A DNA stretch of 17,564 nucleotides from a virus (Duplodnaviria > Heunggongvirae > Uroviricota > Caudoviricetes): IMG/VR virus record IMGVR_UViG_646206259_000006. The stretch is one strand, 5' to 3'. Positions 1,123 to 16,284 of the stretch are shown here, in pieces. Each line of letters starts with the position of its first letter. Positions within the stretch are counted from its first letter, which is position 1. Made by a program: the position numbers and the translations under genes. The notes beneath the pieces are model-generated. The model did no database searches. It was not told the origin of the DNA and saw only the letters and a program-made list of their open reading frames with translations.

Positions 1123-1341
1123 ATGACAGCACACAAGCCAGCATCATCAGCTATCCCAACAACTGGATACATCCGTCGCTTTCGCATGCCGGAATTGCTA
1201 GGTGTTTCACTGCCTACTATTGATAGATGGGTTAAAAATGGCACTCTTCCACGCCCAGTGAAGCTAACAGATAACGTGACTGCGTTTGATGCGGTGGAAA
1301 TTAATAACTGGCTGGCAGAACGCCGCGGGAAGGTGGCCTGA
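1123..1341 (+). CDS. alpA: AlpA-family phage transcriptional regulator / excision-associated DNA-binding protein (72 aa)
   Basis: Small protein with the characteristic AlpA/prophage CP4-57 regulator HTH segment (RMPELLGVSLPTIDRWVKNGTLPRPVKL...NVTAFDAVEINNWL). GAGAGG RBS about 10 nt upstream. Stop overlaps the next start. Confidence 0.8.
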   Translation: MTAHKPASSAIPTTGYIRRFRMPELLGVSLPTIDRWVKNGTLPRPVKLTDNVTAFDAVEINNWLAERRGKVA

Positions 1342-1772
1342 TGGAAAAGAAAAACCGCCCATTACAGGCGGCTAATTCAGATATTCGCGTATCTGATATT
1401 ACGCCCCTTACAAAATCCCTTCAAGCACCAAAGCGCACACCGAAAAAGCATCGTGCCCGAGTCTATATGCTGCGTACTGGTATAGAGGGATGGACAGAAA
1501 ATGACATTCTTCGCTACTGCCGTCTGTCTTCTGGTCGTAACTATGCAACAGAGTTAGAACGCCAGCTTGGAATCACTCTGGAGCGTATCGACGAAAAGAA
1601 TCCTGATGGTATCGGAACACACCTTCGCTACCGTTTCTCCTGCCGTGGTGATGTTCTGAAAGTGATCACTCATGTTAACCATCTTGCGAACATAAATGAT
1701 CACAACGGACTTTCTCAGCAGGAAATTGCCGACATTCTGAAACTCTACCCGGACGCGTTTAACGCCGCCTAA
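1341..1772 (+). CDS. Hypothetical protein (143 aa), translationally coupled to alpA
   Basis: ATG overlaps the alpA TGA stop (TGATG). Basic N-terminus (PKRTPKKHRAR). No recognisable domain. Confidence 0.55.
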   Translation: MEKKNRPLQAANSDIRVSDITPLTKSLQAPKRTPKKHRARVYMLRTGIEGWTENDILRYCRLSSGRNYATELERQLGITLERIDEKNPDGIGTHLRYRFSCRGDVLKVITHVNHLANINDHNGLSQQEIADILKLYPDAFNAA

Positions 1773-1784
1773 CGGAGACTAAAA

Positions 1785-2618
1785 ATGAACATCGAAAAAA
1801 GCAGATTAATTTCTGAGGCCGCCCCTCATCTGAACGCCTCTCTGGGCACAATTAACGGTAATGAATTTGCCGCAATTGTCCCGGTTATTTCTGGTCATAT
1901 AGGTGGGCGTGAAACCAATATTGTTAGCGCAAAAGCGTTACACAAAGCGTTGGGCGTGGGAAAAGACTTCTCTACATGGATCACTGATCGCATCTCTGAA
2001 TATGACTTCACCATTGGGCACGATTACTCAGTCCATAAAACAATTTCCCCAAATTTGGGGAAAAGCCCGAATGGCGCGGCTTACAGCAAGATTAAGCACT
2101 CTGGCAGACCCGGCAAAGACTATCTGTTAAGTGTCGGAATGGCGAAAGAACTGGCAATGATCGAACGCAATGATCAGGGTCGCGCTATCCGTCGTTATTT
2201 CATCCAGTGCGAGGAAGAATTACAGCGTACCGTGCCTGAAATCGCCGCCCGCTATCGTCGCCAGCTAAAAGCCCGTATCAGTGCCGCAAACAACTTTAAG
2301 CCAATGTGCGATGCGCTGAACATGGCCCGTGCCGAGCAGGGGAAAACGACGCAGCAACACCACTACACAAACGAGAGCAATATGATTTCTCGTATCGTTC
2401 TTGGTGGGCTAACTGCTAAGCAGTGGGCGCGGATAAATGGCTATTCTGGCGAACCTCGCGACCATATGAACGCAGAACAGCTTGAGCACCTCTCATATCT
2501 CGAAAGCACCAATATCACGTTAATTGATATGGGCATGGAATATGAGCAGCGCAAAGGAGAACTCACCCACCTGTCGCAACGCTGGCTCGCCAAGCGTCTG
2601 GAGGCGCTCAATGTCTAA
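1785..2618 (+). CDS. Phage antirepressor-like protein (AntA/KilA-C-type), 277 aa
   Basis: GGAG RBS upstream. Sequence flavour of AntA-type antirepressor N-domain (…MIERNDQGRAIRRYFIQCEEEL…). Assignment is from memory of the family, not a search. Confidence 0.6.
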   Translation: MNIEKSRLISEAAPHLNASLGTINGNEFAAIVPVISGHIGGRETNIVSAKALHKALGVGKDFSTWITDRISEYDFTIGHDYSVHKTISPNLGKSPNGAAYSKIKHSGRPGKDYLLSVGMAKELAMIERNDQGRAIRRYFIQCEEELQRTVPEIAARYRRQLKARISAANNFKPMCDALNMARAEQGKTTQQHHYTNESNMISRIVLGGLTAKQWARINGYSGEPRDHMNAEQLEHLSYLESTNITLIDMGMEYEQRKGELTHLSQRWLAKRLEALNV

Positions 2619-2790
2619 GCCAACAGGAATACCACAACCACAAAAACGCTACAAAGATGCCCACGGAGCACTCGTTACTGTCGAAAGCGTGTCTCACAAC
2701 CGAGTGACGTTTTATCGCGACGGGTATCAATCGCCATGCGTACAACCGCTGGCGCGTTTCATGAAGGAGTTCGCGGAGGTTAACCAATGA
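2611..2790 (+). CDS. Small hypothetical protein (59 aa), possibly DUF4222-like
   Basis: ATG at 2611 preceded by GGAGG (2600-2604) and overlapping the upstream stop. The ORF-track call from 2524 is probably an over-extension. Confidence 0.5.
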   Translation: MSKPTGIPQPQKRYKDAHGALVTVESVSHNRVTFYRDGYQSPCVQPLARFMKEFAEVNQ

Positions 2791-3854
2791 TACCCGTCCA
2801 GAAGAAGACATTTTCACTGGCTGGTATGTCGCCAAAATCCAGCAATATGACAGCAAAGTCAGACATTAATACAGCAGATACAAGCAAAGTTTATCATTTG
2901 CTGGTGGTAGGAGCGGATGCCTTAACTATGTCAGAAATTACGGTCGATGGTGTTAGCGTTGAGAAGGTCAGCGGCTATGCCAGAGAATTTCTGGTCGTAG
3001 ATGGCTTTCTCTGCTCGTGTAGTGACTCCACAAAAACCTTCGTCCACGCGCGTGACGTTAACGAAATGAGCGCGATGTACTGTGCTTCTGGTTCTTCCAA
3101 TAGTGAGTTTTCGGAGTCCATAAAAAAGAGCTTGCCGTTATGCGGCAACACGGTTTATGGTTATAAGGCACCTCATAAAACGGGTGCCGGGATTGGCGTC
3201 CTGAAAATTCTGAAGGCGACATATGACGCGCCGAGCGTCTTTTTTTATGTCGTAGGTCTGACTCACCCATTTTTTGGGCGTTGGTGTATAATCCAGCGCC
3301 TTTGTCAATCAATGGTGGCTCAGGCGGGGGCTTCTTCGGAAGCGCCGGTATCCTTCAGAGCCGGTTACGCCAACCCTGTCTGGGCTACCACCAGCGAAAT
3401 TGGCGTTTCCGGTGGTAGCGTAACCTGCTATCTGAAGGAGGCTGCCACATGCTGGCTACTACCCCTACCCAAAAAACGCAATTTATCTGGATTATCGCCG
3501 CAGTTCGCCGCGATTGCCCGACAATTACCGCCAAAATTCATCATATTGCTGCCGAGTCTGAACGCGATGCTCGCCGTTCTCTGGTGCGCGATCACATCTG
3601 CTTTTTTGCTGGTCGTATCCGCATGGAGGTGGCACATGATTAAAAACTACGATGTGCATATGGATCCCCTCGAACGCACAAGCCAGATCATCACACTGAC
3701 AGAAGTGATTAACGACATTCTGGTGAGCAACTCTCCCTCACGAGACGAAAGACTGAAGGCGTTACTCGCGATATTGGATCTCGCCGTTCGTGACGTTCAT
3801 TTCCTGCTGGAAGGTGGCGAAATGCCAGTAAAAACGGGGGCAACCAATGAATAA
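2787..3854 (+). CDS. Hypothetical protein (355 aa as an uninterrupted ORF); 3' third may be a separate small gene starting at ATG 3636
   Basis: ATGA start/stop overlap with the upstream gene and GGAGG RBS at 2775-2779. No in-frame stop until 3854. The stretch about 3240-3636 is W/C/L-rich like a non-coding frame. ATG 3636 has its own GGAGG RBS. Confidence 0.45.
3449..3643 (+). CDS. Alternative small ORF (64 aa) nested out of frame inside the 2787..3854 ORF
   Basis: Strong RBS GAAGGAGG (3434-3441) 7 nt before the ATG. Protein-like composition. Frame opens after a TAG at 3416-3418. Cannot be real together with an intact long ORF unless genes overlap extensively. Confidence 0.3.
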   Translation: MLATTPTQKTQFIWIIAAVRRDCPTITAKIHHIAAESERDARRSLVRDHICFFAGRIRMEVAHD

Positions 3855-4041
3855 CTCAATTAATACCCCTCGCCTTACGTCCGCACTTCAATTAATCGAG
3901 CAAGCAGCGGCTGTCCTGGTTGCTGTCAGTCTTTCGGCTGAAGAAATGGACGCTACTGATGTCGTGGATGCGATTAAAGCGTGCTCATCTTTGGTTAACG
4001 ATGCCCGTGCAGAGCTGGTAATTCTTGGGGGTGAAAAATGA
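3847..4041 (+). CDS. Small hypothetical protein (64 aa)
   Basis: ATG overlaps the upstream stop (ATGAATAA). Part of a coupled chain of small ORFs. Confidence 0.5.
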   Translation: MNNSINTPRLTSALQLIEQAAAVLVAVSLSAEEMDATDVVDAIKACSSLVNDARAELVILGGEK

Positions 4042-4301
4042 ATATCAACTTAATTTATCGTCATCCGTGTGAGCTGGAAATTGAATCATTGCTGAGCCGT
4101 GAAGAGCCATATCCAGACACATTCACTCTTGCAGATCGCACGACTGAACGGCTTACCAGAGCGCGCACAGGTCTGGTTCATGTGATGAATGAGATTCTTC
4201 CATCGGTGGGAGGGGAACAGGCGACAGTAATCAATAGCTGGCTACAAAAAGTTACCTCCCTGATAGATATCAGTTTAATCGATGTGGAGAGTGCGAAATG
4301 A
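4038..4301 (+). CDS. Small hypothetical protein (87 aa)
   Basis: ATGA start/stop overlap with the upstream ORF. Confidence 0.5.
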   Translation: MNINLIYRHPCELEIESLLSREEPYPDTFTLADRTTERLTRARTGLVHVMNEILPSVGGEQATVINSWLQKVTSLIDISLIDVESAK

Positions 4302-4519
4302 CCAACATCCAGCTCATTGAAGCGCAATGTCGCATCGAACAGGTTCAGACTGTTTTAGGGTTCTGGCTTGAAGGGGCCAGCCCAAGCAACAGAGACAAGT
4401 TAATGATTGGCGCGGTTATGTCACTGCTCAATGGCGTACCAGAAGCTATTCAGGAAGCGGACGAATTGTTGGGCAAATATGAGTTACAGAATCATTCAGG
4501 CGAGGCGAAACATGAATAA
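4298..4519 (+). CDS. Small hypothetical protein (73 aa)
   Basis: ATGA start/stop overlap with the upstream ORF. GGAGAG upstream. Confidence 0.5.
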   Translation: MTNIQLIEAQCRIEQVQTVLGFWLEGASPSNRDKLMIGAVMSLLNGVPEAIQEADELLGKYELQNHSGEAKHE

Positions 4520-5114
4520 TTTCTTAACCTTCCATGCAGAAGCAACGCCTGACGGCGTAAACATCATGCACCGCAGCAACAATGGCATGACAGAACGCGT
4601 TGAGACCGTCTCATATATTGATGCCGTAAATCGTCTGGATGCCGGGGATTATGACGATAAACCAGATGAAGGCATGTTTATACATCTCGCTATTGCCAGT
4701 GGCGGCAACCAGGGATATTTCGATTACACATCACAGCATCACGTGATTATGTGGCGCTGGCTGATAGCAACAGCATTAATCAATGAAATGAGAAAGGAAA
4801 ACGGCACCGTCAGCATTATTGATGACAGTGGCAATCATTCCGTGGTTTCTGTTTATTCCAATGGCATCGTCGCCATGCCGCTGTATCCAGTAGCAGAGCG
4901 CCTCGCTATGGCAAACAACATTGAGGGCGCAATGATCGAGAAATATGGTGTTGATGTCGGAACAAAGAATGCCATCATTTTTTACAGCAACATGTTCGAT
5001 GTCGAACAGGGAACACTCACTTCGTTTGGGCGAGAAGTGCTTGCCGATCTTCACAACAGCTTTATTGCCGAACTAAACGAAAACGGCATCCCAGAAGCAC
5101 CAGTGACGCACTAA
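4512..5114 (+). CDS. Hypothetical protein (200 aa); alternative longer start at 4407
   Basis: ATG 4512 overlaps the upstream stop (ATGAATAA), matching the coupling pattern of the operon. The 4407 start would overlap the previous gene by about 110 nt. Confidence 0.55.
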   Translation: MNNFLTFHAEATPDGVNIMHRSNNGMTERVETVSYIDAVNRLDAGDYDDKPDEGMFIHLAIASGGNQGYFDYTSQHHVIMWRWLIATALINEMRKENGTVSIIDDSGNHSVVSVYSNGIVAMPLYPVAERLAMANNIEGAMIEKYGVDVGTKNAIIFYSNMFDVEQGTLTSFGREVLADLHNSFIAELNENGIPEAPVTH

Positions 5115-5126
5115 ACGGGGGCCAGA

Positions 5127-7478
5127 ATGCGAAACATTGATCTTATCCGTCAGGTTATCAGTGCGTCTGAAAACAACTGGCCTCATGTGCTGGGCTGCCT
5201 GAACATAAATGTCCCTGACTCTCCGCGCCGTCATGCTCCCTGCCCTGCATGTGGGGGCAAAGACCGATTCCGGTTCGATGACAACGGGCGCGGTAGCTTC
5301 ATCTGTAATCAGTGCGGCGCTGGTGATGGGCTGGATTTAATTAAACGCGTAAATAACTGCGACACAACAGAGGCGGCGCTGCTTGCCGCTGATGTTCTGG
5401 GTATTGATTACCGGACAACGGAAACACCAGAAGCCACCAGCCAGAAACGGGAACAACTGGAAACCGAGCGCCAGCGACGCGAACAGGAGCGCCTGAAAAG
5501 GGCAGAGAAGGACGAACAACAAAGACGGGATACGTTTTCCCGTCAGTTTGATGACATGCGCAGAAAGGCTGTAAACGGCAAATCTGATTATCTGGTTGCG
5601 AAAGGGGTAGGTGATTTTACATTCCCTGTGTTGCCCGATGGATCTCTGTTGCTGGCGCTGGTGGATAAATCCGGCGCAGTTACAGCAGCACAGACTATTA
5701 CCTCACATGGTGAAAAAAGACTCCTGACAGGTTCAGCAAAGCGAGGGGCATATCACGCCATAAACGCACAGAAACGACCTCACAGCATCATAATTGCTGA
5801 GGGGGTGGCTACCGCCCTGTCGTGCCATTTAATTCGCCCTGACGCAATGACAGTGGCAGCAATCGACGCTGGCAACCTGTTGCCAGTAGCGGAAGTCATG
5901 CGCAGAACATATCCACAGGCACAAATCATCATTGCCGCAGATAACGATCACCAGCAAGGAAACTCCGAAAGTGGAGGGATCAACACGGGGAAAGATGCCG
6001 CAGAGAGGGCCGCTATTTCCGTAGCTGGCTGGGTGTCTCTGCCACCGACTGACTATAAAGCCGACTGGAACGACTATCACCAACAACACGGGCTGGCGGC
6101 AGCCACAGCAGCATTTAAAGATTCGATGTACCAGCCACGGGGGAAAGGGGCGCAGGTGAAAAATCACAAACAGTCAGTCGGGGCGCTGAATGAGATCAGT
6201 TCTGGCGAGGTGTTAAGCGATGATGAAATTGCTGTCCTCGAAGAAATCAACCGGACGTTTACGCATGTCACCATCGGCGGGAAACACAAGGTGGTGTCGC
6301 TAAAGCCTTCTCAAACCGGCGGTGTATCGCACGTTTTCGAGGATTTATCACAATTTCAGCATTATTTTCATCATAAACCGAGAGTCGCCAGAAAGCTGGC
6401 GGGATCGGCGTGGCTGTCATGGAGTGGGAAGAACTACAAGCCAGGAGGCGTAGGATTTTATCCAGTACCAGACAAATGCCCTGACGATGTTTTTAATCTG
6501 TATGAGGGGCTGGCACTGGAACCAATTGAAGGAGATTGCACGGTATACCTTAATCACCTGTTGCAGGTTGTCTGTGCCGGTAATGAAGAGGCATACCAAT
6601 ATCTTATCCAGTGGATGGCGCACATTATCCAAAAGCCTGATGAAAAACCGTCCGTGGCAATCGTGATGAAATCTGTCCCGGGCACAGGGAAAGGCACAAC
6701 GGTTAAACCGCTGCTGCAAATACTGGGGCAGTACGCCGCCCACATTAACGGGGCGGGACATATTTCAGGGCGCTTCAATTCAATACTTGCTAACAAGCTA
6801 CTGGTATTTGCTGACGAAGTGACGATCCACAAGCCGTCTGAAGCTGACAGACTTAAAGCGATTATTAGCGAACCGACGTTTAACCTTGAGCGCAAGGGAA
6901 TTGATGCTGAACCAATGCCGAATTTTGCCCGGTTGATATTTGCCAGTAACAGCACACAGGTATTACAGGCAGGGATAAGAGAGCGCCGCTATCTCGTGCT
7001 TGAGCCATCTCCTGAAAAAGCACAGAGCCGGGAGTATTTTGATCGGCTGTACAGTTGGCTTAATGATGGCGGTGCCGCAAAGTTGCTTTGGCATCTTAAA
7101 GGGGTGGATCTCTCAGGTTTTGACCCTCAACGAGCGCCACAGACCGATGCCTTACGTGAAGAAATCTTGCTGGGGCTGTCTGGCGTTGAATTGTTTCTTT
7201 ATGGCGAGCTAATCAATGAACCTCCGTTTAATGGCGAAGTCCGTTTGTTTGCAAAGGATATGGTTAGTCGGTTTGTAGCGTGGTCGCTTGAGCGTGGGGA
7301 AAAGCTTAAAGAACCAGCTGCCAGATCACTACTGGGTAAATCACTTGCACAAATGGGGCTGGTGAAGCATGGAAGACCAGACCGAGGGAATGGCGTGTTC
7401 TACGAACTACCAGAGGTCGGAGTTCTACAGGCTGCGTTTGCCCGTCTGATCGGTATGGGGGGTTATGATGTTTTTTAA
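5127..7478 (+). CDS. P4-alpha-like primase-helicase (783 aa)
   Basis: N-terminal CxxC…CxxC zinc-binding motif (CPACGG…CNQCGAG). TOPRIM-like segment (IIIAEGVATALS, IIIAADNDHQ). C-terminal P-loop (VPGTGKGT) and DExx-like box (LLVFADEV). Iteron cluster immediately downstream. Confidence 0.85.
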   Translation: MRNIDLIRQVISASENNWPHVLGCLNINVPDSPRRHAPCPACGGKDRFRFDDNGRGSFICNQCGAGDGLDLIKRVNNCDTTEAALLAADVLGIDYRTTETPEATSQKREQLETERQRREQERLKRAEKDEQQRRDTFSRQFDDMRRKAVNGKSDYLVAKGVGDFTFPVLPDGSLLLALVDKSGAVTAAQTITSHGEKRLLTGSAKRGAYHAINAQKRPHSIIIAEGVATALSCHLIRPDAMTVAAIDAGNLLPVAEVMRRTYPQAQIIIAADNDHQQGNSESGGINTGKDAAERAAISVAGWVSLPPTDYKADWNDYHQQHGLAAATAAFKDSMYQPRGKGAQVKNHKQSVGALNEISSGEVLSDDEIAVLEEINRTFTHVTIGGKHKVVSLKPSQTGGVSHVFEDLSQFQHYFHHKPRVARKLAGSAWLSWSGKNYKPGGVGFYPVPDKCPDDVFNLYEGLALEPIEGDCTVYLNHLLQVVCAGNEEAYQYLIQWMAHIIQKPDEKPSVAIVMKSVPGTGKGTTVKPLLQILGQYAAHINGAGHISGRFNSILANKLLVFADEVTIHKPSEADRLKAIISEPTFNLERKGIDAEPMPNFARLIFASNSTQVLQAGIRERRYLVLEPSPEKAQSREYFDRLYSWLNDGGAAKLLWHLKGVDLSGFDPQRAPQTDALREEILLGLSGVELFLYGELINEPPFNGEVRLFAKDMVSRFVAWSLERGEKLKEPAARSLLGKSLAQMGLVKHGRPDRGNGVFYELPEVGVLQAAFARLIGMGGYDVF

Positions 7479-7507: not shown

Positions 7508-7611
7508 ACCTGTACCACCTATACCACTTTGCTAATTCAGCATTAAAAACAATGCGTTATAGTGGTACAGGTCAATATCTTACCTATACCAGACCTGTAC
7601 CACCTATACCA
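7508..7611. repeat. Iteron cluster 1 (putative origin): 19-bp direct repeat ACCTGTACCACCTATACCA at 7508-7526 and 7593-7611 with an inverted TGGTACAGGT copy between them
   Basis: Direct reading. Lies immediately 3' of the primase-helicase gene in an AT-rich context, the usual position of the ori in P4/PICI-type elements. Confidence 0.7.
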
Positions 7612-7654: not shown

Positions 7655-7885
7655 ATGATGAGCACACCATTTTACAAAGTGCGCCAGTTAGCTTCTTCCT
7701 CTGGCTGGCAGCTACGGTTTGAGGGGCGTTCAGACTGGCTACCCATTGCGGCATGGGCGAATGTTGAAATGTGTATTGACGGCGATACCGTTGAAATCAT
7801 TATTCCCTGCGTGGCAAGTCGGGACGGCTGTATAGAGCCAACAGATATGGCAGCAGAAATCAGAGAGGTAAAACATGAACAATAA
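7655..7885 (+). CDS. Hypothetical protein (76 aa)
   Basis: AGAGGGA RBS upstream of ATG. Stop overlaps the next start. Confidence 0.5.
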   Translation: MMSTPFYKVRQLASSSGWQLRFEGRSDWLPIAAWANVEMCIDGDTVEIIIPCVASRDGCIEPTDMAAEIREVKHEQ

Positions 7886-8612
7886 CTATTGCATACTGCA
7901 GGGAATGACCAGAACGGAGCGCGAAGAATTAAAAAGTTTCGCTACACAGTGCGGGAATGCTGGCGACATCCAAAGTCTGGAACGCACTTTAATTATGATT
8001 GCGCACTGGATGCGCCAGGGGCAAAGAGTTTCATTTACTGAATATGCCAGCCAGTGGACAGAGGCACAGCGCGAACGGAGCGACGGTAATCACTCAACAC
8101 CCGAAATGGCGAAGCAATGGCCTTTCAGTGGTAAACGCTGTATCAGTCCCGGTGGTTCAGATTATTACCCTGCTGGTGTGGGAGATGAGCCATGTTGTGA
8201 CGAGACTGAAATCCGCCACGCAGTGACAGTAATTACCGCTGAATACCCACAATTTAACCTTGACGGACTGGCGCTCCACAACCGGAATGCGGACTGGGAA
8301 AACCCGCTTGATAACCCGTCATTTATCGTATCGGCGAAAAGCTGCCTGAGATGGATCAGAGACAACGGGATGAGTAATGCCCAGATTGAGAGCTTCCCGC
8401 AGGATAACCCCACATCTGACACGTTGAAGCATGAAGTGGAGCGATATAACCAGATAAACCACCAGCACAGTGATCACCCGCACTATATCCCCAACGGAGC
8501 ATTTATTGCGGCGATGGTGGCAAGCGGCTACAAGGTTAAGCCAGCGGGAAGAATGAACGCATTTTTCAATATTTCAAAAAAGGGATTATGTGCTGCTATG
8601 GGTAAAAATTAA
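7875..8612 (+). CDS. Hypothetical protein (245 aa)
   Basis: GAGAGG RBS. ATG overlaps the upstream stop. No recognisable domain. Sits between the two iteron clusters. Confidence 0.55.
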   Translation: MNNNYCILQGMTRTEREELKSFATQCGNAGDIQSLERTLIMIAHWMRQGQRVSFTEYASQWTEAQRERSDGNHSTPEMAKQWPFSGKRCISPGGSDYYPAGVGDEPCCDETEIRHAVTVITAEYPQFNLDGLALHNRNADWENPLDNPSFIVSAKSCLRWIRDNGMSNAQIESFPQDNPTSDTLKHEVERYNQINHQHSDHPHYIPNGAFIAAMVASGYKVKPAGRMNAFFNISKKGLCAAMGKN

Positions 8613-8617
8613 ATAAA

Positions 8618-8721
8618 TGGTACAGGTCTGTACAGGTGGGGAGAGGTCATTTTTACCCACCTGTACCACCTGCAGGCCGCGCCACACAAGGGTTTGTGAC
8701 ATGGTGGTACAGGTGGTACAG
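8618..8721. repeat. Iteron cluster 2 (crr-like): at least four copies of the GGTACAGG/CCTGTACC core in both orientations
   Basis: Direct reading: TGGTACAGGT 8618-8627, CTGTACAGGTGG 8628-8639, CCACCTGTACCACC 8657-8670, GGTGGTACAGGTGGTACAG 8703-8721. Same core as cluster 1. Confidence 0.65.
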
Positions 8722-9085
8722 CAAAAACAGCGATTTTCTTTATAAGGTATGTTTTGCTCATCTGGCAGACGGAGGTATTCGCTGCGGTTTGGCACATAGC
8801 CCAGAACAGCAAAGAGTTTTACGAGACTTTTGTAAAATCCAGTGTACAAGGGCGTGACGTTTTTGAAGGTGAGCACTACGAAATTTTCGTAGTTCAAAAA
8901 ATAGCCTCTGAGATGTTGTTATGCCTGTTCAGCAAACCATCCGCATAGCTGATCGCGAATCAAATTACCAATGGAGCCAGAAGCAAGGGCAGAACTGGAA
9001 AGCGCCTGCCGTGAAGAGTAATGCGACTCCATAAATATAGTTTTTAGAGTCCATAAAAAAACTGTCAAAACCTGACATACAGAAC

Positions 9086-9119
9086 GATGCCACCAGCTAC
9101 TGAACGGTGGCATTTTTTT
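9086..9119 (+). terminator. Rho-independent terminator (8-bp stem, 11-nt loop, T7 run)
   Basis: ATGCCACC (9087-9094) pairs with GGTGGCAT (9106-9113), followed by TTTTTTT. Separates the replication module from the downstream cargo operon. Confidence 0.6.
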
Positions 9120-9216
9120 GTGCTATTTGTTTCATATTTTGCAATCACAATGATGAATGTTGCGTTTTATGAAACTATAATGACTGTTGTTTTATACAGT
9201 TCTAAGGGGGGCGTTA

Positions 9217-9389
9217 TGGCTATTTCAGTAAAGCCAGTATTGATAAGTGAGAAGCAAATGGAAGCGATAAAGAAAATTCAGGAGGAGCAGCGTAAAAAAT
9301 CAGAGGTAGGAGTTGCGCCAACGATCCACGAAATTGCTCGGGGATTAATGGATAAGGCGCTGGCTTACACTTTAACTGGACGTGGGTAA
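9217..9389 (+). CDS. Small hypothetical protein (57 aa), possibly ribbon-helix-helix-like DNA-binding
   Basis: AAGGGGGG RBS 5 nt upstream. Perfect -10 TATAAT at 9176-9181. The ORF-track call from 9087 is likely an over-extension. The RHH guess is from the beta-strand-then-helix pattern only. Confidence 0.45.
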
Positions 9390-9393: not shown

Positions 9394-10737
9394 ATGGCTA
9401 CGTGGCAACAGGGTATTAATTCTGGTGGTTTTCTGGCTGGCATCGGTGCGCAAAATGAGAATGCGCCAAAGGCAAGCGACATTAACGCAACGCTTGGTCT
9501 GATCCGCGAAAACAATGAACTGGCTCGCTCAGGTGCAAATAACGTTGCTCTGACAGGTCTTCGTGGTCTGGCTGGAGTTGCTGACATTTATAAGCAGCAG
9601 CAACAGCAGGAACGTAAAGCGGCATTCCAGAAAGGTTATGCAGATGCTTATGCGTCCGGTGACAGGGAGCAGATGCGTAATCTTATTACAGCATTCCCAG
9701 AAGAGTTTGAGGAAGTCCGTAAAGGGATGAGTTATGTCGATGATGCTCAAAGGGATGATTATGGCAATCTGGCGCTCAAAGCACAGGTAGCCTCATCGCT
9801 TGGTCAGGGCGCATTTGGCAGGTTCATGATGGATAATGAGCAGGAGATGCGTCGTTTAGGTATCCCTCCAGAAACTATTGCTGAAATGCAGGTTAATGAC
9901 CCGCAGGGCTTCCAGCATTTCGCAGGTAATCTGGCGCTGTTTTCTCTCGGTCATGAGAAGTATTTCGATATCAAAGATCAAATGGAAGGTCGTCGACTTG
10001 AGCAAGGGCGACTGGATGAAAGTATGCGTCAGGCTGACATGGAGAACGCGAGAGGATGGGCAAATATCCAGAACGCTCAACTAGACAGGGCTCAGCGAGC
10101 ACAAATTCACTCAGATGAGATGGGATTGAAGCTAATGGAGCTGGGGCAAAAAGGTAAGCCGTCAGCAGACTTAATTAAGGGATTAAATTCTGACATTACC
10201 AATTTTGGCAAAAATTATAACTCTGTCAGAGCGGCGGCAAACTCTCTGCAAGCCCTTAGCAAGGTAAATACTGGCGCTGCCCAACTTGGGATTATCTTCA
10301 ACTACATGAAATCTCTTGACCCGCAGTCAGTCGTTCGTGAAGGCGAACAGGTTCAGGTAATGCGGTCTGATGGCATATGGGGACAAATCAAAGGATACAT
10401 AGACCAGCTTAATGCTGGAAACGGCCTGTCGCAGGAGGCAAAGGATAACATTGTTAACGCCGCAAAAATCAACGCCAATGCTATGGGGCAGCAGTTTAAC
10501 CAGCAGGTTGACGAGTATCTCGATACATATGGAGAAACTATTCCTCAGGGGCTAAGAAAAAGCCTTGAAAGAAGGAAAGCGAAGCTATTTGACGATGTTT
10601 CCGGGCAGCCTACATCACAGGCTGGCACTGGACAGGCAAAAGCGGCAACCGGAGGAATATCAGAAGGCGCAACGGCAACCAACCCTAAAACTGGTCAGAA
10701 AATCATTTACAGGAACGGAAAATGGCAGCAAATGTAA
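9394..10737 (+). CDS. Hypothetical large protein (447 aa from ATG 9394; alternative GTG start 9382), Q/N/A-rich and predicted largely helical
   Basis: Long ORF with coding-like composition. No catalytic motif seen (no P-loop, HNH or PD-(D/E)xK). Low-complexity poly-Q stretch (QQQQQ). Flavour of phage internal/ejection or scaffold-type proteins; function unknown. Confidence 0.6.
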   Translation: MATWQQGINSGGFLAGIGAQNENAPKASDINATLGLIRENNELARSGANNVALTGLRGLAGVADIYKQQQQQERKAAFQKGYADAYASGDREQMRNLITAFPEEFEEVRKGMSYVDDAQRDDYGNLALKAQVASSLGQGAFGRFMMDNEQEMRRLGIPPETIAEMQVNDPQGFQHFAGNLALFSLGHEKYFDIKDQMEGRRLEQGRLDESMRQADMENARGWANIQNAQLDRAQRAQIHSDEMGLKLMELGQKGKPSADLIKGLNSDITNFGKNYNSVRAAANSLQALSKVNTGAAQLGIIFNYMKSLDPQSVVREGEQVQVMRSDGIWGQIKGYIDQLNAGNGLSQEAKDNIVNAAKINANAMGQQFNQQVDEYLDTYGETIPQGLRKSLERRKAKLFDDVSGQPTSQAGTGQAKAATGGISEGATATNPKTGQKIIYRNGKWQQM

Positions 10738-12839
10738 TCTTACCGGAAGGTTTTGTGCTCGATGAACAACCTGATAACTCACAGTTTCCTGATAGTTCAC
10801 AGCTTCCTGATGGTTTTGTGCTTGATGCCCAACCAGAACAGCAGCAATCACCTTTGGTTTCACCAGAGGAAAATTCCAGACAGGAAAATGTTGTTAATAA
10901 TGCTAACGGTTTCGACCGTTTTATGTATGGCGTTCTCAGTGGATTGATGGATGTTGGTAAAGGTGTTGGCCTGTTTCAGGATATGACACCAGAAGAGCAA
11001 GCCGCAATTCAGTCTCTACAGCAGAAGTTAGCGGCAAAACCATCAACCGCACAAGATGTTGGTGAGTTCGTTGGACAAGCAGCGCCATTTGTTAGTGGTG
11101 GTGGGATTATTTCTCAGGTTCCCAAAGGGGCGGCAAGACTGGCTGCCGCCGTAGGGCTTGGTGCTGGAGAAGGGGCTATTGTAGCCAATGGAACAAATAG
11201 CGATGTTGCTTCCGGCGCTGCTATTGGCGCTGTGGCTGGCCCTGTAGCCGAACTTGCTGGCCCTGCAATTAATAAAATAGCTGGGAAATTAACCAAGAAG
11301 AATGTTTCTTCGATTCCAGATATTGAGGGGATTACTCCTGCCGAAGAGAAAATTCGTAAGTTATCTGCACAAGGCAACCCAAATCTTGCCTCTTCGCTTG
11401 AAGGGCTAGATCTAAAACCTCAGAAAGAAATTGTTGAGGCTGCAAATAGGCTTCATGTTGATTCAGTTCTTCCTTCTCATTTATCAGGAAATGAGCAATA
11501 CCAAGCTGTAGAGCAAGCCCTAAAGTCACGGACAGGATCAGCGTTAAAAGCTCAAGAAGATAAAGCAATAAGCGAATTAGCCTCTAGTGCTGACAAGATA
11601 ATCGATGATGTTGCTGGTGCGCCAGATGCGTTAGCTATGAGCGAAAAATATATTTATCAGATAAATAGTAGAATGGAAGCACTAAAAAACCGTAGTGATC
11701 AGTTATATAAACGTGTTGATTCCGCTCTATCACCAAGAACAAAAGTCGAAGCAAATAACACAAGCACTATGCTGGAAAAAATCGCTGATGATTTAGGAGG
11801 GTGGGATAATCTTGACCCAATAGAAAAGCGAGTTTTTACAGCAATAAACCCCGGCCCAGATAGCATCCTAACGTATGCAAATTTAAACAGGCAAAGGCGT
11901 TTAGTTGGTGATGCCCTAAATAAAAAGCAGGGGCCATACAAAGATGCTGATAAAGAAGCGCTATCAAGACTATATGGAGCTTTAGCTGAAGACCAAAAAT
12001 CTGTCTTATCCAATACTGGATACTTGCGAGATTTCGAAGTCGCACAACGCCTTGTAGCTATGAGAAAAAACTTAGAAAGGCAAATGGTAAATCTTCGCGG
12101 GAAAACACTTAATGGGGATATAGCGTATAAAGTAACGAATTCTCTTCAATCTATGGCAAAAGGTGATGCGAGAGGGTTTCGTGAGATTATGCAAAATACT
12201 CCATCAAGAACATTGCGAAGGGAGCTAGTAGGAACAGCATTAAGAGATATGCTTTCCTCTGGGAAGCGTGGGGCCGACTTTAATCCATCTGGCTTTGCAG
12301 ATTGGTGGCAAAACTTGCAACACAGTGGACAGCTAAAGACTTTGGCTGAACATTTGCCAAAAGAAACAATGAGCGGACTATATGATGTATACAAAGTTGC
12401 CAGAGCAATAAAAAATGCTAAAGCGCATGAAATATCTACTGGTAAGCTGAATGAGTTTGTAAACAGATTTAATCGGGTAACAGCTCCATACGAACTAGCA
12501 GCAAAACACATTCAAAAAATAGGCACGATGGTAGGCGCTCATTTTGGATCGCTTGGAGCCATTGCTGGGGCTGATATTGGAGCAAGATTGGCGAGTAAAG
12601 CTCGATTAGCTGGTGGAGCAGGGGCGGCTGATGCTGCGGATAAATTAATTGCCTCGCCAGCCTTCCAGAGCGCAGTAAAAAATCTACACGGAAAAGCGCC
12701 TGGGCACATTGTTGATTCACGTATCAGGCGCTCCCCTCAATGGAAGAGTTTTTTTAACTCTCTTCCTGAACAGGAAAAACGGACCATCGCCAGACTGGGC
12801 ATCATTACTTGGCTATCTAATGATCCAGATAATGACTAG
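10722..12839 (+). CDS. Hypothetical large protein (705 aa) with N-terminal tandem peptide repeat, Gly/Ala-rich segments and a long helical middle
   Basis: Overlaps the upstream gene by 16 nt, so co-transcribed. N-terminal repeat PEGFVLDEQP / PDGFVLDAQP. GxxxG-rich segment (GLGAGEGAIVANG…AIGAVAGPVAELAGPA) and C-terminal Gly/Ala hydrophobic stretch (GAHFGSLGAIAGADIGARLA). No enzymatic motif recognised. Confidence 0.6.
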   Translation: MAANVILPEGFVLDEQPDNSQFPDSSQLPDGFVLDAQPEQQQSPLVSPEENSRQENVVNNANGFDRFMYGVLSGLMDVGKGVGLFQDMTPEEQAAIQSLQQKLAAKPSTAQDVGEFVGQAAPFVSGGGIISQVPKGAARLAAAVGLGAGEGAIVANGTNSDVASGAAIGAVAGPVAELAGPAINKIAGKLTKKNVSSIPDIEGITPAEEKIRKLSAQGNPNLASSLEGLDLKPQKEIVEAANRLHVDSVLPSHLSGNEQYQAVEQALKSRTGSALKAQEDKAISELASSADKIIDDVAGAPDALAMSEKYIYQINSRMEALKNRSDQLYKRVDSALSPRTKVEANNTSTMLEKIADDLGGWDNLDPIEKRVFTAINPGPDSILTYANLNRQRRLVGDALNKKQGPYKDADKEALSRLYGALAEDQKSVLSNTGYLRDFEVAQRLVAMRKNLERQMVNLRGKTLNGDIAYKVTNSLQSMAKGDARGFREIMQNTPSRTLRRELVGTALRDMLSSGKRGADFNPSGFADWWQNLQHSGQLKTLAEHLPKETMSGLYDVYKVARAIKNAKAHEISTGKLNEFVNRFNRVTAPYELAAKHIQKIGTMVGAHFGSLGAIAGADIGARLASKARLAGGAGAADAADKLIASPAFQSAVKNLHGKAPGHIVDSRIRRSPQWKSFFNSLPEQEKRTIARLGIITWLSNDPDND

Positions 12840-12858: not shown

Positions 12859-13284
12859 TCAATCTTTATTCTTTGAAATAGAGTCATTGATCTTTTCGAA
12901 ACACCAATGAAATCCACAAAAGAGAGCTACACCAATATAACAATACAAAACTATCAACCACCTTTCAGTGTCCGAAGGGTAAAAAACATCAATTACATAA
13001 GCAACACCAATTGGTATTAATGCTAGTAATAACATCGACACAGGACGTACAAACTTCTGAACTATATCAATTTTATAGAACCACAAGGCGGTATGTTTAA
13101 TGATATAAGTAAAGATGGCTGCGCCAATAATGGCAAAAAACACCATCGATAAAGTCGGGTATAACTTTGCGACAATTAAACCCAACAAAATAATTATAAC
13201 TGCCTGCCCCCTCACACCAACCCTCCCTTTAGCTTTGTTTAGAATGGCAATCATCATATATCCAAGACATGGCATTTGGTACAT
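12859..13284 (-). CDS. Small integral membrane protein (141 aa, about 4 predicted TM helices); function unknown
   Basis: Four hydrophobic stretches of about 18-20 aa (AVIIILLGLIVAKL, MVFFAIIGAAIFTYII, SMLLLALIPIGVAYVI, LIVLYCYIGVALFCGF). Convergent with the 705-aa gene, separated by 19 bp containing a small GGCCA-cgga-TGGCC hairpin. Confidence 0.5.
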   Translation of the reverse strand: MYQMPCLGYMMIAILNKAKGRVGVRGQAVIIILLGLIVAKLYPTLSMVFFAIIGAAIFTYIIKHTALWFYKIDIVQKFVRPVSMLLLALIPIGVAYVIDVFYPSDTERWLIVLYCYIGVALFCGFHWCFEKINDSISKNKD

Positions 13285-13375
13285 AGCTTGGGTCGGGATT
13301 TCAAATCCGCTCCCCGTTGATGGGGCCGTTACAGTACGCGCATATCCGCTTTATGTGAAACAGGAAGATTTTTCT

Positions 13376-13476
13376 GATATCACTGCCACAGCAAAACACC
13401 AATTTCGTGACCAGTACGCGCGCGAGGGGTATCAGTTGCAAAAATTTTGCAACCACGTCCGACCAGTACGCACACG
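13376..13476. repeat. Non-coding repeat block: two copies of an alternating-CG motif (CCAGTACGCGCGCG / CCAGTACGCACACG) flanking the inverted repeat TTGCAAAA-A-TTTTGCAA (13436-13452)
   Basis: Direct reading. A related roughly 55-bp sequence recurs at 16285-16338 and a shorter copy at 13688-13711. Confidence 0.5.
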
Positions 13477-13687
13477 ATGGCGGGGGATACCATGAAACTG
13501 TTCTCTACACGAGACAGAGTGGTGGTGATGTGTTGATTATCGGCGTATATGCGCACAGGACGCGCTATGACGATGTTTTATGCGGGTACACCAATCACAT
13601 GTATCTGGTGTGATAAATCGCGTTACATGACCTCTCATGTTGTGCTGGTGGTTATCACGACTTTCTGAATCTGGCCTTTGCCTGATA

Positions 13688-13711
13688 TTTTGCGACAAGT
13701 ACGCGCGCGTA
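13688..13711. repeat. Third copy of the CG-alternating motif, containing the perfect palindrome TACGCGCGCGTA
   Basis: Direct reading: TTTGCGACAAGTACGCGCGCGTAGC. Confidence 0.45.
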
Positions 13712-14165
13712 GCATCGAAATTATCGGATGGCGTATGCTGCTGGCAATATGAAGACCGATAGTATTAACCGAAAAGCGAAAGAGCTTCTCGATAACGGCA
13801 AGATCGCGGCAAGGGTTGCTGAATTTGAACAGATGTAAGGAATGGAACCAGAGAGGCGCTGGCGGCGAAAAAACGCCACTACCAGCGGATAAATGTGCCA
13901 ATCTTTTAGTTGGAAAAACAGCATAGAAGGCTACCATGATATGTAAAGATTGCTCAAAAAGTTATTATCAACGTCTAATTTCATTAAAAATGCTCCTTAT
14001 TGCTGTTAAAAATCAAAGAAATCATTTAAAAACCGTTCAACACCCCCCATCTGTCTTCAAAAAGATTTGTGTTGGTTAGTGACTAGTTACCTTTTATATG
14101 TAAATATATCCACAAGGGAAGTGGTGAAAATTTCGACTATTTAACCATAATCAAAGGAGGTGAAC

Positions 14166-14648
14166 ATGTCGAATACATCTGCACATGCCCTCTTGAAAGA
14201 TATCTGGGGCGATAGGAAATTCCCGGTTGATCCAGTATGGATTGCCAATGAGTTAGGGTTGGATGTTGTTGAAACCACGCTTGATGATGATGTTTCAGGC
14301 GCATTGCTGAAAGAGCCAGAACAAGATCCAGTAATCATACTCAATCGTAATGATAGTAACGTGCGCAAACGATTTACGTGTGCGCATGAGTTAGGGCATT
14401 ACGTCAAACGAACTGAGAACGGTCAGCCACTTGAATATGAGTTTGTTGATTACCGCGGAAAACTGGCAAGCCAAGGTGTAGACAGCGAAGAAATATTCGC
14501 CAATAACTTTGCAGCATGTCTTCTCATGCCAGAAAAAGAGGTTCGACGCCTCAACAATGCAGGATATGCACCAGTAATGATGGCTTCCTATTTTGGTGTA
14601 TCCGATGATGCTATACGTTATCGCCTAAAGAATTTAGGGCTTCGATGA
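14166..14648 (+). CDS. ImmA/IrrE-family (DUF955-type) zinc metallopeptidase (160 aa)
   Basis: AGGAGG RBS (14155-14160). HEXXH zinc-binding motif (CAHELGHY) in the context typical of ImmA/IrrE peptidases. No HTH domain detected in the protein itself. Confidence 0.7.
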   Translation: MSNTSAHALLKDIWGDRKFPVDPVWIANELGLDVVETTLDDDVSGALLKEPEQDPVIILNRNDSNVRKRFTCAHELGHYVKRTENGQPLEYEFVDYRGKLASQGVDSEEIFANNFAACLLMPEKEVRRLNNAGYAPVMMASYFGVSDDAIRYRLKNLGLR

Positions 14649-14651
14649 GTA

Positions 14652-15029
14652 ATGACGTCTAGATCTTACGCTATATCTGAAAAACTAAAGCAAGCGGCAA
14701 GACAAGCCAGAGGTGAACCAGCCTCTGGCTCATCTCCATCAGCAAAAACCCTCACACATCTAAATGATAAGGATCCAGCCAAAGCCCATCAGCGTGCAAA
14801 AACAAAAGATTTAAAAACAGACACAAAACTGAAAAAAATGTTTGCTCGGTGGTTTATCGGCATTCTGATAGGCCAGCTATTAGTTATGAATGGGATTTTT
14901 GTCCTTATTGGAGCAAAACTGCTCCATTTTAGTGATTTCGTTATAAACCTATTTATGGGGGGAACCCTCGCTGAAGTCTTTGGCATTGTTTTAGTGATGG
15001 CACGCTACCTGTTCTCCAAGCACGTCTAA
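14652..15029 (+). CDS. Small membrane protein (125 aa): basic hydrophilic N-terminus plus two C-terminal TM helices; coupled to the peptidase gene
   Basis: ATG 3 nt after the peptidase stop. Hydrophobic stretches FIGILIGQLLVMNGIFVLIGAKLL and LFMGGTLAEVFGIVLVMARYLF. Confidence 0.5.
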   Translation: MTSRSYAISEKLKQAARQARGEPASGSSPSAKTLTHLNDKDPAKAHQRAKTKDLKTDTKLKKMFARWFIGILIGQLLVMNGIFVLIGAKLLHFSDFVINLFMGGTLAEVFGIVLVMARYLFSKHV

Positions 15030-15045
15030 AAATCAAAATATAGGG

Positions 15046-15489: not shown

Positions 15490-15590
15490 ATCAGTGAGTA
15501 ATATCCATACAGTATACCACTGTATAACACTGTTATACGCTCAAATATCAGCCAGAAAATAACGGACCAATCACAAAGCTATCGCTGTGT

Positions 15591-15735
15591 TGTTGGTTCA
15601 GAGCTGGGCTGTGTTGGTTCAAAATGAGTTGATGTTGGTTCAACATTTCAGAAAAAACACAATAAAAACAACGATCTTTACAAATTAAACCAACTGAACC
15701 AACTGAACCAACACCTTTTTGCTTATCTATATAAT
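15591..15735. promoter_or_regulatory. Divergent promoter/operator region: three direct TGTTGGTTCA repeats at 21-bp phasing (15591, 15612, 15633), two tandem inverted copies TGAACCAAC (15695-15712), and a perfect -10 TATAAT (15730-15735) for the plus-strand gene
   Basis: Direct reading. The inverted copies sit where the -35 of the PerC-like gene promoter would be. A related half-site TGTTGGTTAG occurs near 14071-14080 upstream of the peptidase gene. Confidence 0.55.
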
Positions 15736-15748
15736 CTGAGAGGCAGAA

Positions 15749-16036: not shown

Positions 16037-16284
16037 TGCTCTCTCTCTGTTTTGGCAAATTCCCCCTCACTTTGAAGGGATCGGAGCTATAAAAATGGTG
16101 TTATCCGGCTTCCTGCATTGTAGGTTTTCGAAAAAATCAATGGGTTAGGTCATCGTGCAAATTTGCACTCTGCCAGCCAACGCAATTTCTCGTTGGCGAA
16201 AATATCAGGTATTTACTGAACGAACGGTCTACCAGTCTATTCAGTTACCAGTTGCACATGGCTGTTTCATGTGAGAACGGAGGT

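Follow-up and report, generated by a model that had tools for sequence, protein, structure and literature searches.

Gene content of the regulation and replication region

The 17,564-nt stretch of DNA analysed here (the window), from IMG/VR virus record IMGVR_UViG_646206259_000006, is a 100% identical chromosomal segment in ~60 complete Escherichia coli genomes, nearly all of them from human isolates, and the backbone it carries is present in 112 genomes at ≥80% coverage. The original prediction placed at positions 1123–7478 the regulatory and replication backbone of a phage satellite, made up of an AlpA-family regulator, an antirepressor-like protein, a chain of small coupled open reading frames (ORFs) and a P4-alpha-type primase-helicase followed by iterons. 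The closest known element is compared throughout. This is EcCIMP1, a 20-kb phage-inducible chromosomal island (PICI) of E. coli MP1 (Pick, Stadel & Raivio, ISME J 2025; PMC11773190; GenBank OR778291). Excision, circularization and transduction of EcCIMP1 occur only with the P22-like phage Kapi1 and require its own int and alpA, and the element affects superinfection immunity (PMC11773190). The region 1123–7478 contains the following genes.

1123–1341, + strand: alpA, AlpA-family helix-turn-helix (HTH) regulator (Pfam Phage_AlpA, 26.5 bits against a cut-off of 21; PHROG 'excisionase and transcriptional regulator')
1341–1772, + strand: 143-aa backbone protein, orf143 ('PM1773 family' in some RefSeq records), with an ATGA overlap with alpA
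1785–2618, + strand: AntA/AntB-type antirepressor-like protein (Pfam AntA, 2e-21; PHROG 'anti-repressor Ant', 4e-38)
2611–2790, + strand: DUF4222 small protein, coupled on both sides (RefSeq; phrog_285, 2e-11; 95% identical to EcCIMP1)
2787–3854, + strand: 355-codon 'ash' ORF (Pfam Phage_ASH match at aa 124–232, nt 3156–3483)
3847–5114, + strand: four coupled ORFs (64, 87, 73 and 200 aa) before the primase, with overlaps of 4–8 nt
5127–7478, + strand: Pri-Rep, 783 aa, with Zn_Ribbon_Prim, Toprim_3 and DUF5906, the last a superfamily 3-type helicase/initiator half (Pfam; PHROG DNA primase, 1e-92)

Every intergenic gap from alpA through the primase lies between −8 and +12 nt, so the description of these genes as coupled ORFs is accurate. 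Pfam, PHROG and the gap sizes together confirm the regulator, the antirepressor and the small ORFs. The chain keeps its predicted coordinates and coupling, but the 355-aa Ash ORF does not stand as a simple protein gene, as discussed below. Protein orf143 is 99% identical to its EcCIMP1 counterpart and 64–85% identical to those in 14 loci of other genera, with a ratio of nonsynonymous to synonymous substitution rates (dN/dS) of 0.15. The AntA protein, 96% identical to that of EcCIMP1, belongs to the Bro-N network zone. The four small ORFs are 84–100% identical to EcCIMP1, with dN/dS values of 0–0.33, and the 200-aa protein matches phrog_1515.

Relation to EcCIMP1

The two elements share the order int, alpA, orf143, antA, DUF4222, ash (containing isrK, C4 and icd), small ORFs, primase, a 53/57-aa ORF, ejection proteins and perC. 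Nucleotide identity to EcCIMP1 is 94% across window positions 1331–5112 (3.8 kb), 87% at 5127–6148, 93% at 8813–9364, 96% at 13290–13802 and 87% at 15591–15832. Proteins from orf143 to orf73 are 95–100% identical with the exception of Ash, which shows 72% identity against the truncated 165-aa call of PGAP, and the 200-aa ORF is 84% identical. Both elements also carry a PerC-family gene with GAACCAAC iterons upstream of it. Because the integrase, alpA, helicase half and iterons differ from those of EcCIMP1, the island is a relative and not the same element. It also lacks the second alpA_1/xis-like gene of EcCIMP1, and its cargo differs.

We consider it probable (roughly 0.8) that 1123–7478 is the regulation ('Bro') and replication zone of a Gram-negative PICI of the EcCIMP1 lineage, located at the 3′ end of yicC. 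The island is an EcCIMP1-like Gram-negative PICI with a different integration module, immunity allele and replicon. Islands between yicC and dinD have been dismissed as 'partial phage'; the island in the window is a satellite of a lineage shown to be mobile in 2025, and it carries a PerC-like virulence regulator.

The backbone extends to >10 Enterobacterales genera. When one genome per species was scanned, relatives of the N-terminal primase half were encoded at 24 loci. The same DUF5906 backbone occurs with an EcCIMP1-type integrase at tRNA-Thr (locus L005). Among these relatives the integrase and alpA are exchanged as one module and the helicase and iterons as another; the immunity allele and the late-zone protein are also swapped.

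Borders and integration module

An integrase had been expected beyond the window, with a decayed integrase-less remnant as the alternative. In the genomic context of the ~60 identical segments (in strain SCU-306 at L001 14736–16004), a gene for a 422-aa P4-type tyrosine integrase lies on the + strand directly upstream of window base 1. It is full length, with Arm-DNA-bind_3, Phage_int_M and Phage_integrase domains, and its stop codon overlaps window base 1 and the GTG start of a 216-aa ORF (1–651) by 4 nt. This gene bears out the expectation. The island is ~17.97 kb long by alignment with the empty K-12 locus and occupies the interval between the yicC stop codon and dinD. Its left border falls immediately after the yicC stop codon and its right border at window 16518/16519, 218 bp before dinD.

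16423–16431 and 16435–16443, + strand: two arm-type repeats GTGTACATA at the right end of the island, followed by the attR core at ~16509–16518 (comparison with the empty K-12 site)

The attR core reads ATCCAAATAA, and host sequence restarts with CTCGTAACGCC at 16519. The yicC end reads ATCGAATAA, so that extending the analysis upstream gave, besides the integrase, a core repeat shared with ATCCAAATAA of which only 5 bp (AATAA) are perfect. In addition to the two copies of the arm-type repeat GTGTACATA at 16423–16443, three lie just upstream of int; these five exact copies in 49.5 kb (0.38 expected) all fall within ~160 bp of the island ends. Near both ends there is also a 24-nt imperfect repeat (22/24) that scores 38, compared with a shuffle maximum of 30. 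An exact-word search for long att repeats gave only a 12-mer, which is the arm-type repeat.

A tRNA was rejected as the integration target, ARAGORN having found none in the window; the target is the 3′ end of yicC. EcCIMP1, in contrast, is inserted at tRNA-Thr (proA–yagU), and its integrase is 29% identical. Exactly at the attR junction (16509–16518) there is a 3-nt length polymorphism, the window (N68 type) having CCAAATAACTCG and SCU-306 and many other strains CCAAACTCG. SCU-306 lacks 3 nt relative to the window, and the polymorphism changes the length of the repeat shared with the yicC end.

AlpA and its control region

652–1122, + strand: AT-rich alpA control region (sequence; GC content 0.37; TRF repeat at 795–835)

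By analogy with alpA-lux reporter results for EcCIMP1 and EcCICFT073, this region is a candidate helper-responsive, AlpA-autoregulated promoter. AlpA is the presumed master activator of the island and possibly also an excision factor. The region holds direct repeats, with copies of AGCCAT at 795–835 and of TTTCAATAGATT at 1010–1021 and 1031–1042, 21 nt apart. The AGCCAT and TTTCAATAGATT repeats are candidate binding sites for AlpA or a helper-encoded inducer.

Compared with EcCIMP1, the control region is unrelated, showing no homology at the nucleotide level, and AlpA is 34% identical. AlpA is 76–93% identical to the products of alpA genes beside yicC-type integrases in other genera. The Rfam 'int-alpA RNA' (RF02996) matches locus L005, the tRNA-Thr backbone variant, with 46.7 bits at 12653–12720, between int and the gene that follows. 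The int–alpA region of the window gave no match to this RNA at gathering score.

An antisense RNA immunity cassette within the ash frame

The Pfam Ash match (3156–3483) coincides with two Rfam RNA matches, isrK and C4, both on the + strand. The original prediction had overlooked this RNA immunity cassette, whose elements are listed here.

3132–3161, + strand: candidate internal constitutive promoter, TTGCCG-18 nt-TATGGT (read by eye)
3168–3245, + strand: predicted isrK/seqA-like leader RNA (Rfam RF01394, 67.8 bits against a gathering score of 50, full model 1–77)
3308–3395, + strand: predicted C4/CI-type antisense immunity RNA (Rfam RF01695, 79.9 bits against a gathering score of 45, E = 1e-14, full model 1–87)
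3400–3406 and 3431–3439, + strand: downstream C4 targets b2 (TTGGCGT) and a2 (TCTGAAGGA), exactly complementary over 7 nt and 9 nt, respectively
3449–3643, + strand: 64-aa Icd/Kil-like ORF (NCBIfam NF033153 'host cell division inhibitor Icd-like', 70.3 bits against a cut-off of 25, E = 1e-19)

The leader contains the targets b1 TTGGCGT (3193–3199) and a1 TCTGAAGG (3209–3216) and ends in an intrinsic terminator at 3225–3245 that a terminator scan found independently. A weak c4-a1b1 match (19 bits, E = 0.04) lies at 3155–3207. The C4 RNA exposes loop a′ UCCUUCAGA (3351–3359) and loop b′ ACGCCAA (3367–3373), and complementarity with the leader and downstream sites was checked by script. Its consensus fold has a minimum free energy of −46.4 kcal/mol. 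Across the window, EcCIMP1 and P4, all 28 stem pairs are kept, seven by doubly compensatory changes and none broken. A conserved TATAAT is located upstream of C4 at 3287–3292. Target a2 overlaps the Shine–Dalgarno sequence AAGGAGG (3435–3441) of the Icd-like ORF, which is the first translated gene past the cassette and shares 40% identity with the P4 cI/kil ORF in the C-terminal part of the latter. An Icd-like annotation exists at the homologous place in EcCIMP1; RefSeq leaves the ORF unannotated for the window allele, where the ash ORF encloses it in another frame.

Comparison of five loci revealed two alleles of the cassette. The block 3192–3434 is ~40% diverged between the two allele groups, whereas the flanks differ by 2–6%, and no column varies in 3132–3191. 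Both C4 loops and all four targets have changed together, making the window allele distinct from that of EcCIMP1 at each of these sites. In the EcCIMP1 allele, a′ UCCUUGUAC is matched by the target GUACAAGGA, and b′ CUGCGAA by UUCGCAG. Cognate duplexes have energies of −31 to −43 kcal/mol overall and non-cognate duplexes −20 to −27; for the downstream targets the cognate value is −40.2 kcal/mol, compared with −22.5 to −26.5 for non-cognate alleles. The same two Rfam matches were obtained in P4, used as a positive control, and in EcCIMP1, and nhmmer located a C4-like RNA upstream of the primase in 13 of the 24 loci.

With its C4 RNA, seqA-like leader and terminator, targets, icd and long frame, the predicted cassette has the P4-type RNA immunity architecture. 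P4 (NC_001609) likewise has seqA (isrK), CI (C4) and then kil/icd in a long eta-like frame coupled upstream, and the P4 'cI ORF' aligns to window 3282–3619. Here the icd-like and long ORFs use different frames, whereas P4 kil is nested in frame within eta. The immI regions of P1 and P7 are also alike, with a C4-family RNA, loops a′/b′, upstream a1/b1 and downstream a2/b2 over the icd ribosome-binding site. They differ in that the antirepressor gene is downstream of the cassette in P1/P7 and upstream here, and in that the switch here appears to gate the replication module. In P1/P7 heteroimmunity, specificity shifts through co-variation of C4 loops and their targets. At least two immunity specificities in an otherwise 95–100% identical backbone predict that related satellites can co-reside or superinfect one another.

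We interpret the ash ORF as a P4 eta-like read-through frame spanning the whole RNA cassette and not as a simple protein gene. In P4, translation of eta from an upstream inducible promoter prevents immunity-specific termination (summarised in PMC10111431). The ash frame is open in 5/5 loci compared, through the ~40%-diverged block, with 0 stops against 1–7 in the other frames. PGAP calls EcCIMP1 ash (L003 25573–26067) a truncated pseudogene, yet the 355-codon frame is open there too. Ash may be a functional protein or a mere translated spacer. The candidate promoter at 3132–3161, judged by its sequence, would start transcription at ~3168, the first isrK-like base, and would be the equivalent of P4 PLE.

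Homologues of CI and seqA were noted earlier in 'several' Gram-negative PICIs (PMC10111431), and the EcCIMP1 paper (PMC11773190) makes no mention of antisense RNA or icd. The cassette is known in kind and new for the EcCIMP1 lineage, a family in which P4/P1-style antisense-RNA immunity is hidden in an ORF annotated as a protein ('ash family'). More widely, matches to the Pfam Ash family call for caution, since here they mostly follow RNA genes.

Primase-helicase and iterons

The predicted primase-helicase is present, but its P4-alpha likeness holds for the N-terminal half and not for the helicase half. Amino acids 7–337 (Zn-ribbon/Toprim) align with P4 alpha at 33% identity (E = 1e-40). The helicase half gave no alignment to P4 alpha, and the NCBIfam model 'P4 family primase C-term' scored 20.4 bits against a cut-off of 108.7; identity with full-length P4 alpha was rejected, the N-terminal half alone aligning. 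A PDB sequence search with the primase matched only the helicase domain of the NrS-1 primase. In comparison with EcCIMP1, amino acids 1–351 are 85% identical and the first 240 near-identical. Beyond this shared half the EcCIMP1 primase switches to a DUF927 helicase without similarity to the DUF5906 half found here, and the iterons differ as well. Iterons and associated ORFs are located as follows.

7508–7611, no strand assigned: replication origin, iterons arranged 2 + 1 (inverted) + 3 round an AT-rich spacer (motif search)
7655–8612, + strand: two ORFs (76 and 245 aa) between the iteron clusters, a post-pri accessory slot
8619–8721, no strand assigned: second iteron cluster, three exact copies and one partial copy in mixed orientation (motif search)
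15590–15713, no strand assigned: EcCIMP1-type iterons upstream of perC, 3 × TGTTGGTTCA at 21-nt spacing, an AT-rich spacer and 3 × AACCAACTG

The iterons predicted downstream of the primase are real. The motif ACCTRTACC has nine exact copies against 0.07 expected, and 0/200 shuffles reach nine. The first cluster starts 30 nt after the primase stop codon and has six copies in the sets 7508–7526 and 7582–7611. The second cluster, possibly a crr-like cis element, is conserved in register in loci L004, L005 and L008. The ACCTRTACC origin layout is kept, perfectly conserved, in all DUF5906-type relatives (L001, L004, L005 and L008). EcCIMP1 lacks these iterons and has GAACCAAC-type ones behind its primase instead, and iteron type co-varies with helicase type (DUF5906 or DUF927). 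The 76- and 245-aa ORFs are extra relative to EcCIMP1 and travel with the DUF5906 replicon; the 245-aa ORF has a confident predicted model with weak winged-helix similarity only.

The motif GAACCAAC gives five matches against 0.51 expected. Motif and layout at 15590–15713 are those of the origin after the EcCIMP1 DUF927 primase and of a second copy before EcCIMP1 perC. This set is an orphan because the island lacks the cognate DUF927 helicase. Its role may be that of a crr-like element, or of a region that controls perC and moves along with it.

Assignment to the Gram-negative PICIs

Gram-negative PICIs follow a four-zone plan of Integration, a Bro zone with immunity RNAs, Replication and Late (Mageeney et al. 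2023, PMC10111431), and the published layout of the PICI origin places one set of iterons on either side of an AT-rich region (Fillol-Salom et al. 2018, PMC6092414). The island resembles Gram-negative PICIs of the EcCICFT073 type in its inward int followed by a co-oriented alpA (1123–1341, +), its Bro-type zone with AntA and with CI/seqA-type RNAs inside an eta-like gene, its pri-rep followed by two iteron sets round an AT-rich spacer, its perC cargo and its size in the 10–20 kb range. A late zone with captured helper genes is a further likeness, and late-gene capture is accepted for PICIs (PMC10111431). The island differs in lacking terS, Rpp, Ppi and a capsid-morphogenesis gene, its late zone consisting of ejection proteins.

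Judged by Pfam/PHROG gene content against the published SatelliteFinder PICI scheme (de Sousa et al. 2023), the island would have 3/5 core components (int, alpA and pri-rep), with no match for terS or a capsid-morphogenesis gene, and would be of Type C, like EcCIMP1; the SatelliteFinder authors do not count this type as a confident PICI. The upstream integrase, the ~17.97-kb extent and the lack of capsid, tail and lysis genes support the predicted satellite backbone; the island does encode two virion ejection-protein homologues.

The features shared with P4 would fit a true P4-family satellite exploiting a P2-like helper, a reading to which we give next to no probability. Besides the CI (C4) and seqA (isrK) immunity with a kil/icd-like ORF, these are a P4-type integrase (25% identity), an AlpA/Vis-like regulator, the Zn-ribbon/Toprim primase half with its 33% identity to alpha, and iterons in two separated clusters, as the type-1 repeats of P4 lie at ori and crr. 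Searches by tblastn with P4 sid, delta, psu, epsilon, gop, beta and cII found nothing, and among P4 proteins searched against the whole island only int, the N-terminal half of alpha and the cI-ORF region matched. At the nucleotide level there was no match to the P4 cos ends, the immunity region alone matching. The helicase/origin-binding half is unrelated to that of P4, and the late genes that were captured belong to the P22 type rather than the P2 type. Because sid, psu, delta, epsilon and cos are without counterpart, only the N-terminal part of alpha aligns and the C-terminal model reaches 20 bits, the island is not of the P4 family. It further differs from P4 in its extra Bro-zone genes (orf143, antA and DUF4222) and in its presumed helper, P22-like and not P2-like.

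Late zone and captured ejection genes

The original prediction also overlooked ejection-protein genes downstream of the replication zone.

9216–9389, + strand: 57-aa ORF heading the late zone (terminator-like hairpin before it, 9096–9118)
9394–12839, + strand: P22 gp20-like (447 aa) and gp16-like (705 aa) DNA-ejection genes, intact (Pfam Inj_translocase, 2.5e-73; phrog_917, 4e-132; phrog_6704, 7e-175; phrog_770)

The 57-aa ORF is 87% identical to its EcCIMP1 counterpart and is kept, at 50–92% identity, in 12/24 loci of other species, most of them belonging to other genera; in every such locus examined, a virion penetration or ejection gene comes right after it. The ejection proteins are 75% (gp20) and 41% (gp16) identical to those of phage Kapi1 in amino-acid sequence, and parts of the genes show 85–89% nucleotide identity to Kapi1 and a P22-like prophage (Lederbergvirus). 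Between satellite copies, dN/dS is 0.04 for gp20 and 0.26 for gp16, and it is <0.35 for backbone and ejection genes. The gp20/gp16 pair is a captured helper-type late module. EcCIMP1 has gp14–gp7–gp20–gp16 homologues of other alleles, whereas the window lacks gp14 (DUF2824) and gp7-like genes; gp20 is 25% identical between the two, and gp16 has 705 aa here, with no SLT domain detected, compared with 906 aa.

These genes could also be the remains of a virion module, the island then being a defective P22-like prophage or a satellite/prophage fusion. The 85–89% identity in parts to Lederbergvirus phages fits such an origin, as does the fact that PHASTER-type tools called yicC–dinD insertions 'partial phage'. 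We regard it as very improbable. No capsid, portal, terminase, tail, holin or endolysin gene was found in the island by Pfam/PHROG, the two ejection homologues being the only virion genes, and other P22-type genes (portal, coat, terminase, tailspike, c2 and lysis) are absent. An ordinary complete prophage, the outcome that would have spoken against the predicted satellite, fails as a reading because the island has no capsid, portal, terminase, tail or lysis gene. Matches to Kapi1 by tblastn are limited to int (25%), gp20 and gp16, and a search of the phage collection with the whole window gave matches limited to the ejection genes and dinD. Moreover, gp20/gp16 are intact, with dN/dS of 0.04–0.26, and hold a fixed place after the 57-aa ORF, an architecture shared by islands at two att sites and by EcCIMP1. 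Relatives in other genera fill the same slot with other penetration proteins, and the inward int/AlpA arrangement is typical of satellites and not of prophages (PMC10111431).

In 9/9 loci inspected, the gene after the 57-aa ORF encodes a virion penetration or ejection protein. P22-type E-proteins (gp20/gp16) occupy this slot in the window, EcCIMP1 and Leclercia. The slot holds tape-measure proteins in Klebsiella michiganensis, Pluralibacter and Lonsdalea. In Klebsiella sp., Enterobacter and Cedecea it codes for SLT-domain 'internal virion' or 'lytic tail' proteins, and in Pantoea for a baseplate-hub-like protein (loci outside E. coli: L012, L014–L016, L018, L019, L027 and L029). We tentatively suggest, with more doubt than confidence, that the slot always carries one or more helper-type, envelope-ejected proteins for DNA entry and that satellites supply their own conduit, matched to the morphotype of the helper. 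The suggestion builds on intact ejection genes, purifying selection and recent exchange with helper-type phages. One conceivable use of such a conduit would be to carry satellite-loaded particles past the injection-blocking superinfection exclusion of helper lysogens, the recipients that satellites most need. It is also conceivable that the ejection proteins shut out a superinfecting helper, which would account for the unexplained superinfection immunity of EcCIMP1. A theme of satellite-borne DNA-delivery proteins was not found stated in the open-access literature searched. If true, it would be a new class of satellite–helper interaction, testable directly in EcCIMP1 and Kapi1.

Proposed control of the island and its mobility

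Helper- and alpA/int-dependent excision and transduction are known for the relatives EcCIMP1 and EcCICFT073, and eta/CI/seqA control for P4. From these, and from the gene content, borders, RNA genes with co-varying targets, iterons and EcCIMP1 near-identity described above, we infer where the promoters lie, in which order events occur, which helper is used and that the island is still mobile. In the resting state, the internal promoter in the ash frame would make a short isrK/seqA-like transcript, most copies of which would stop at 3225–3245. Read-through RNA would be processed into the C4/CI antisense RNA (3308–3395). Through its loops a′/b′, this RNA would bind b1/a1 in the leader as well as the downstream pair b2/a2 at the icd/kil-like ribosome-binding site. 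This pairing would enforce termination and block icd translation, keeping the small ORFs and the primase silent.

Upon induction, a lytic helper, most likely a P22-like Lederbergvirus, would activate the alpA promoter, and AlpA would boost its own synthesis. Ribosomes would then run through alpA, orf143, antA, DUF4222 and the ash/eta-like frame. Translation across the RNA cassette would prevent antisense pairing and termination, letting the transcript reach the primase. For spread, the integrase would excise the island, possibly with AlpA as directionality factor, Pri-Rep would fire the iteron origin at 7508–7611, and the DNA would be packaged in helper capsids.

Several observations weigh against this reading. 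No terS, capsid-size or pac/cos function was found in the island, and no similarity to the Kapi1 terS region; a pac-site mimic was rejected after blastn of the window against the whole Kapi1 genome gave nothing near terS. The helper signal may differ from that of EcCIMP1, because alpA and its promoter are another allele. EcCIMP1 itself transduces poorly, and a P22-like prophage is present in only 2/21 of its carrier strains (PMC11773190). The direct att repeat is very short, 5 bp perfect or ~9/10 imperfect, and some copies of the island carry insertion sequence (IS) damage or a truncated integrase. Within the cassette, substitutions in the N-terminal part of ash lack third-position bias (6/6/8) and are too few to decide on codon constraint, and an automatic promoter scan listed neither RNA-cassette promoter, both having been read by eye.

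Some of these points would equally suit a genuine family member that is now immobile, domesticated or decaying, and kept for cargo such as perC, ImmA/IrrE or superinfection immunity. Beyond the 5-bp att repeat, the IS-interrupted or truncated-integrase copies and the lack of an identified packaging function, the 3-nt attR-junction polymorphism between strains points this way; the orphan EcCIMP1-type iterons suggest past module shuffling, and clonal identity in ~60 human isolates fits vertical inheritance. We nevertheless hold loss of mobility to be unlikely. Purifying selection acts on the backbone ORFs, none of which is disrupted, and the full-length integrase is accompanied by arm-type repeats at either end of the island; the RNA cassette is intact with matched targets, and the iterons are perfectly conserved. 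Recent mobility is implied by the occurrence of the backbone at another att site and, alongside this type of integrase, in other genera, and the near-identical EcCIMP1 is mobile (PMC11773190). A PICI still capable of helper-dependent transfer remains the preferred reading.

Accessory genes and minor observations

The remaining genes of the window lie in accessory slots.

1–651, + strand: 216-aa ORF in the int–alpA accessory slot (RefSeq; phrog_30524, unknown function, 3e-34)
12859–15489, mixed strands: variable accessory slot with a membrane protein (−), an ImmA/IrrE metallopeptidase at 14166–14648 (+), a 125-aa ORF (+) and a ribbon-helix-helix-like 143-aa ORF (−)
15749–16036, + strand: PerC-family regulator (Pfam PerC, 2.6e-33)

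The backbone had been predicted to carry variable accessory cargo, and the slot between gp16 and perC indeed differs among strains, holding ImmA/IrrE and the 125-aa ORF in the window, an Abi family protein in AF10 (L008 15692–16669) and small ORFs in E1648. The ImmA/IrrE protein matches Pfam Peptidase_M78 (1e-19) and PADLOC capP (8e-25; like CapP, a regulator protease of cyclic-oligonucleotide-based antiphage signalling systems, CBASS) and is also RmrA-like. It was the sole PADLOC match, with no complete defence system, and no recognisable HTH partner or effector system lies near ImmA/IrrE and the 125-aa ORF (14166–15029). The perC gene is an accessory gene typical of E. coli PICIs; its product is 54% identical to EcCIMP1_025, which repressed LEE1 in C. 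rodentium (PMC11773190).

The 216-aa ORF (1–651) has no Pfam or PADLOC match, and a homologue at the same position in Klebsiella michiganensis (L015) is 72% identical. In other PICIs the int–alpA slot houses accessory or defence genes, and a DUF6387 protein fills it in L005. The E. coli yicC–dinD region (window 16514–17564) is matched at 96% identity by two GenBank records of 174 kb, labelled 'Campylobacter phage' (A18a and A11a) and lacking annotation; these matches, the source of the dinD matches in the phage collection, probably reflect E. coli DNA inside those records and not phage biology. In the spacer between perC and dinD, a 60-nt stretch (16090–16149) is 83% identical to part of the Kapi1 anti-repressor gene (Kapi1 13227–13286).

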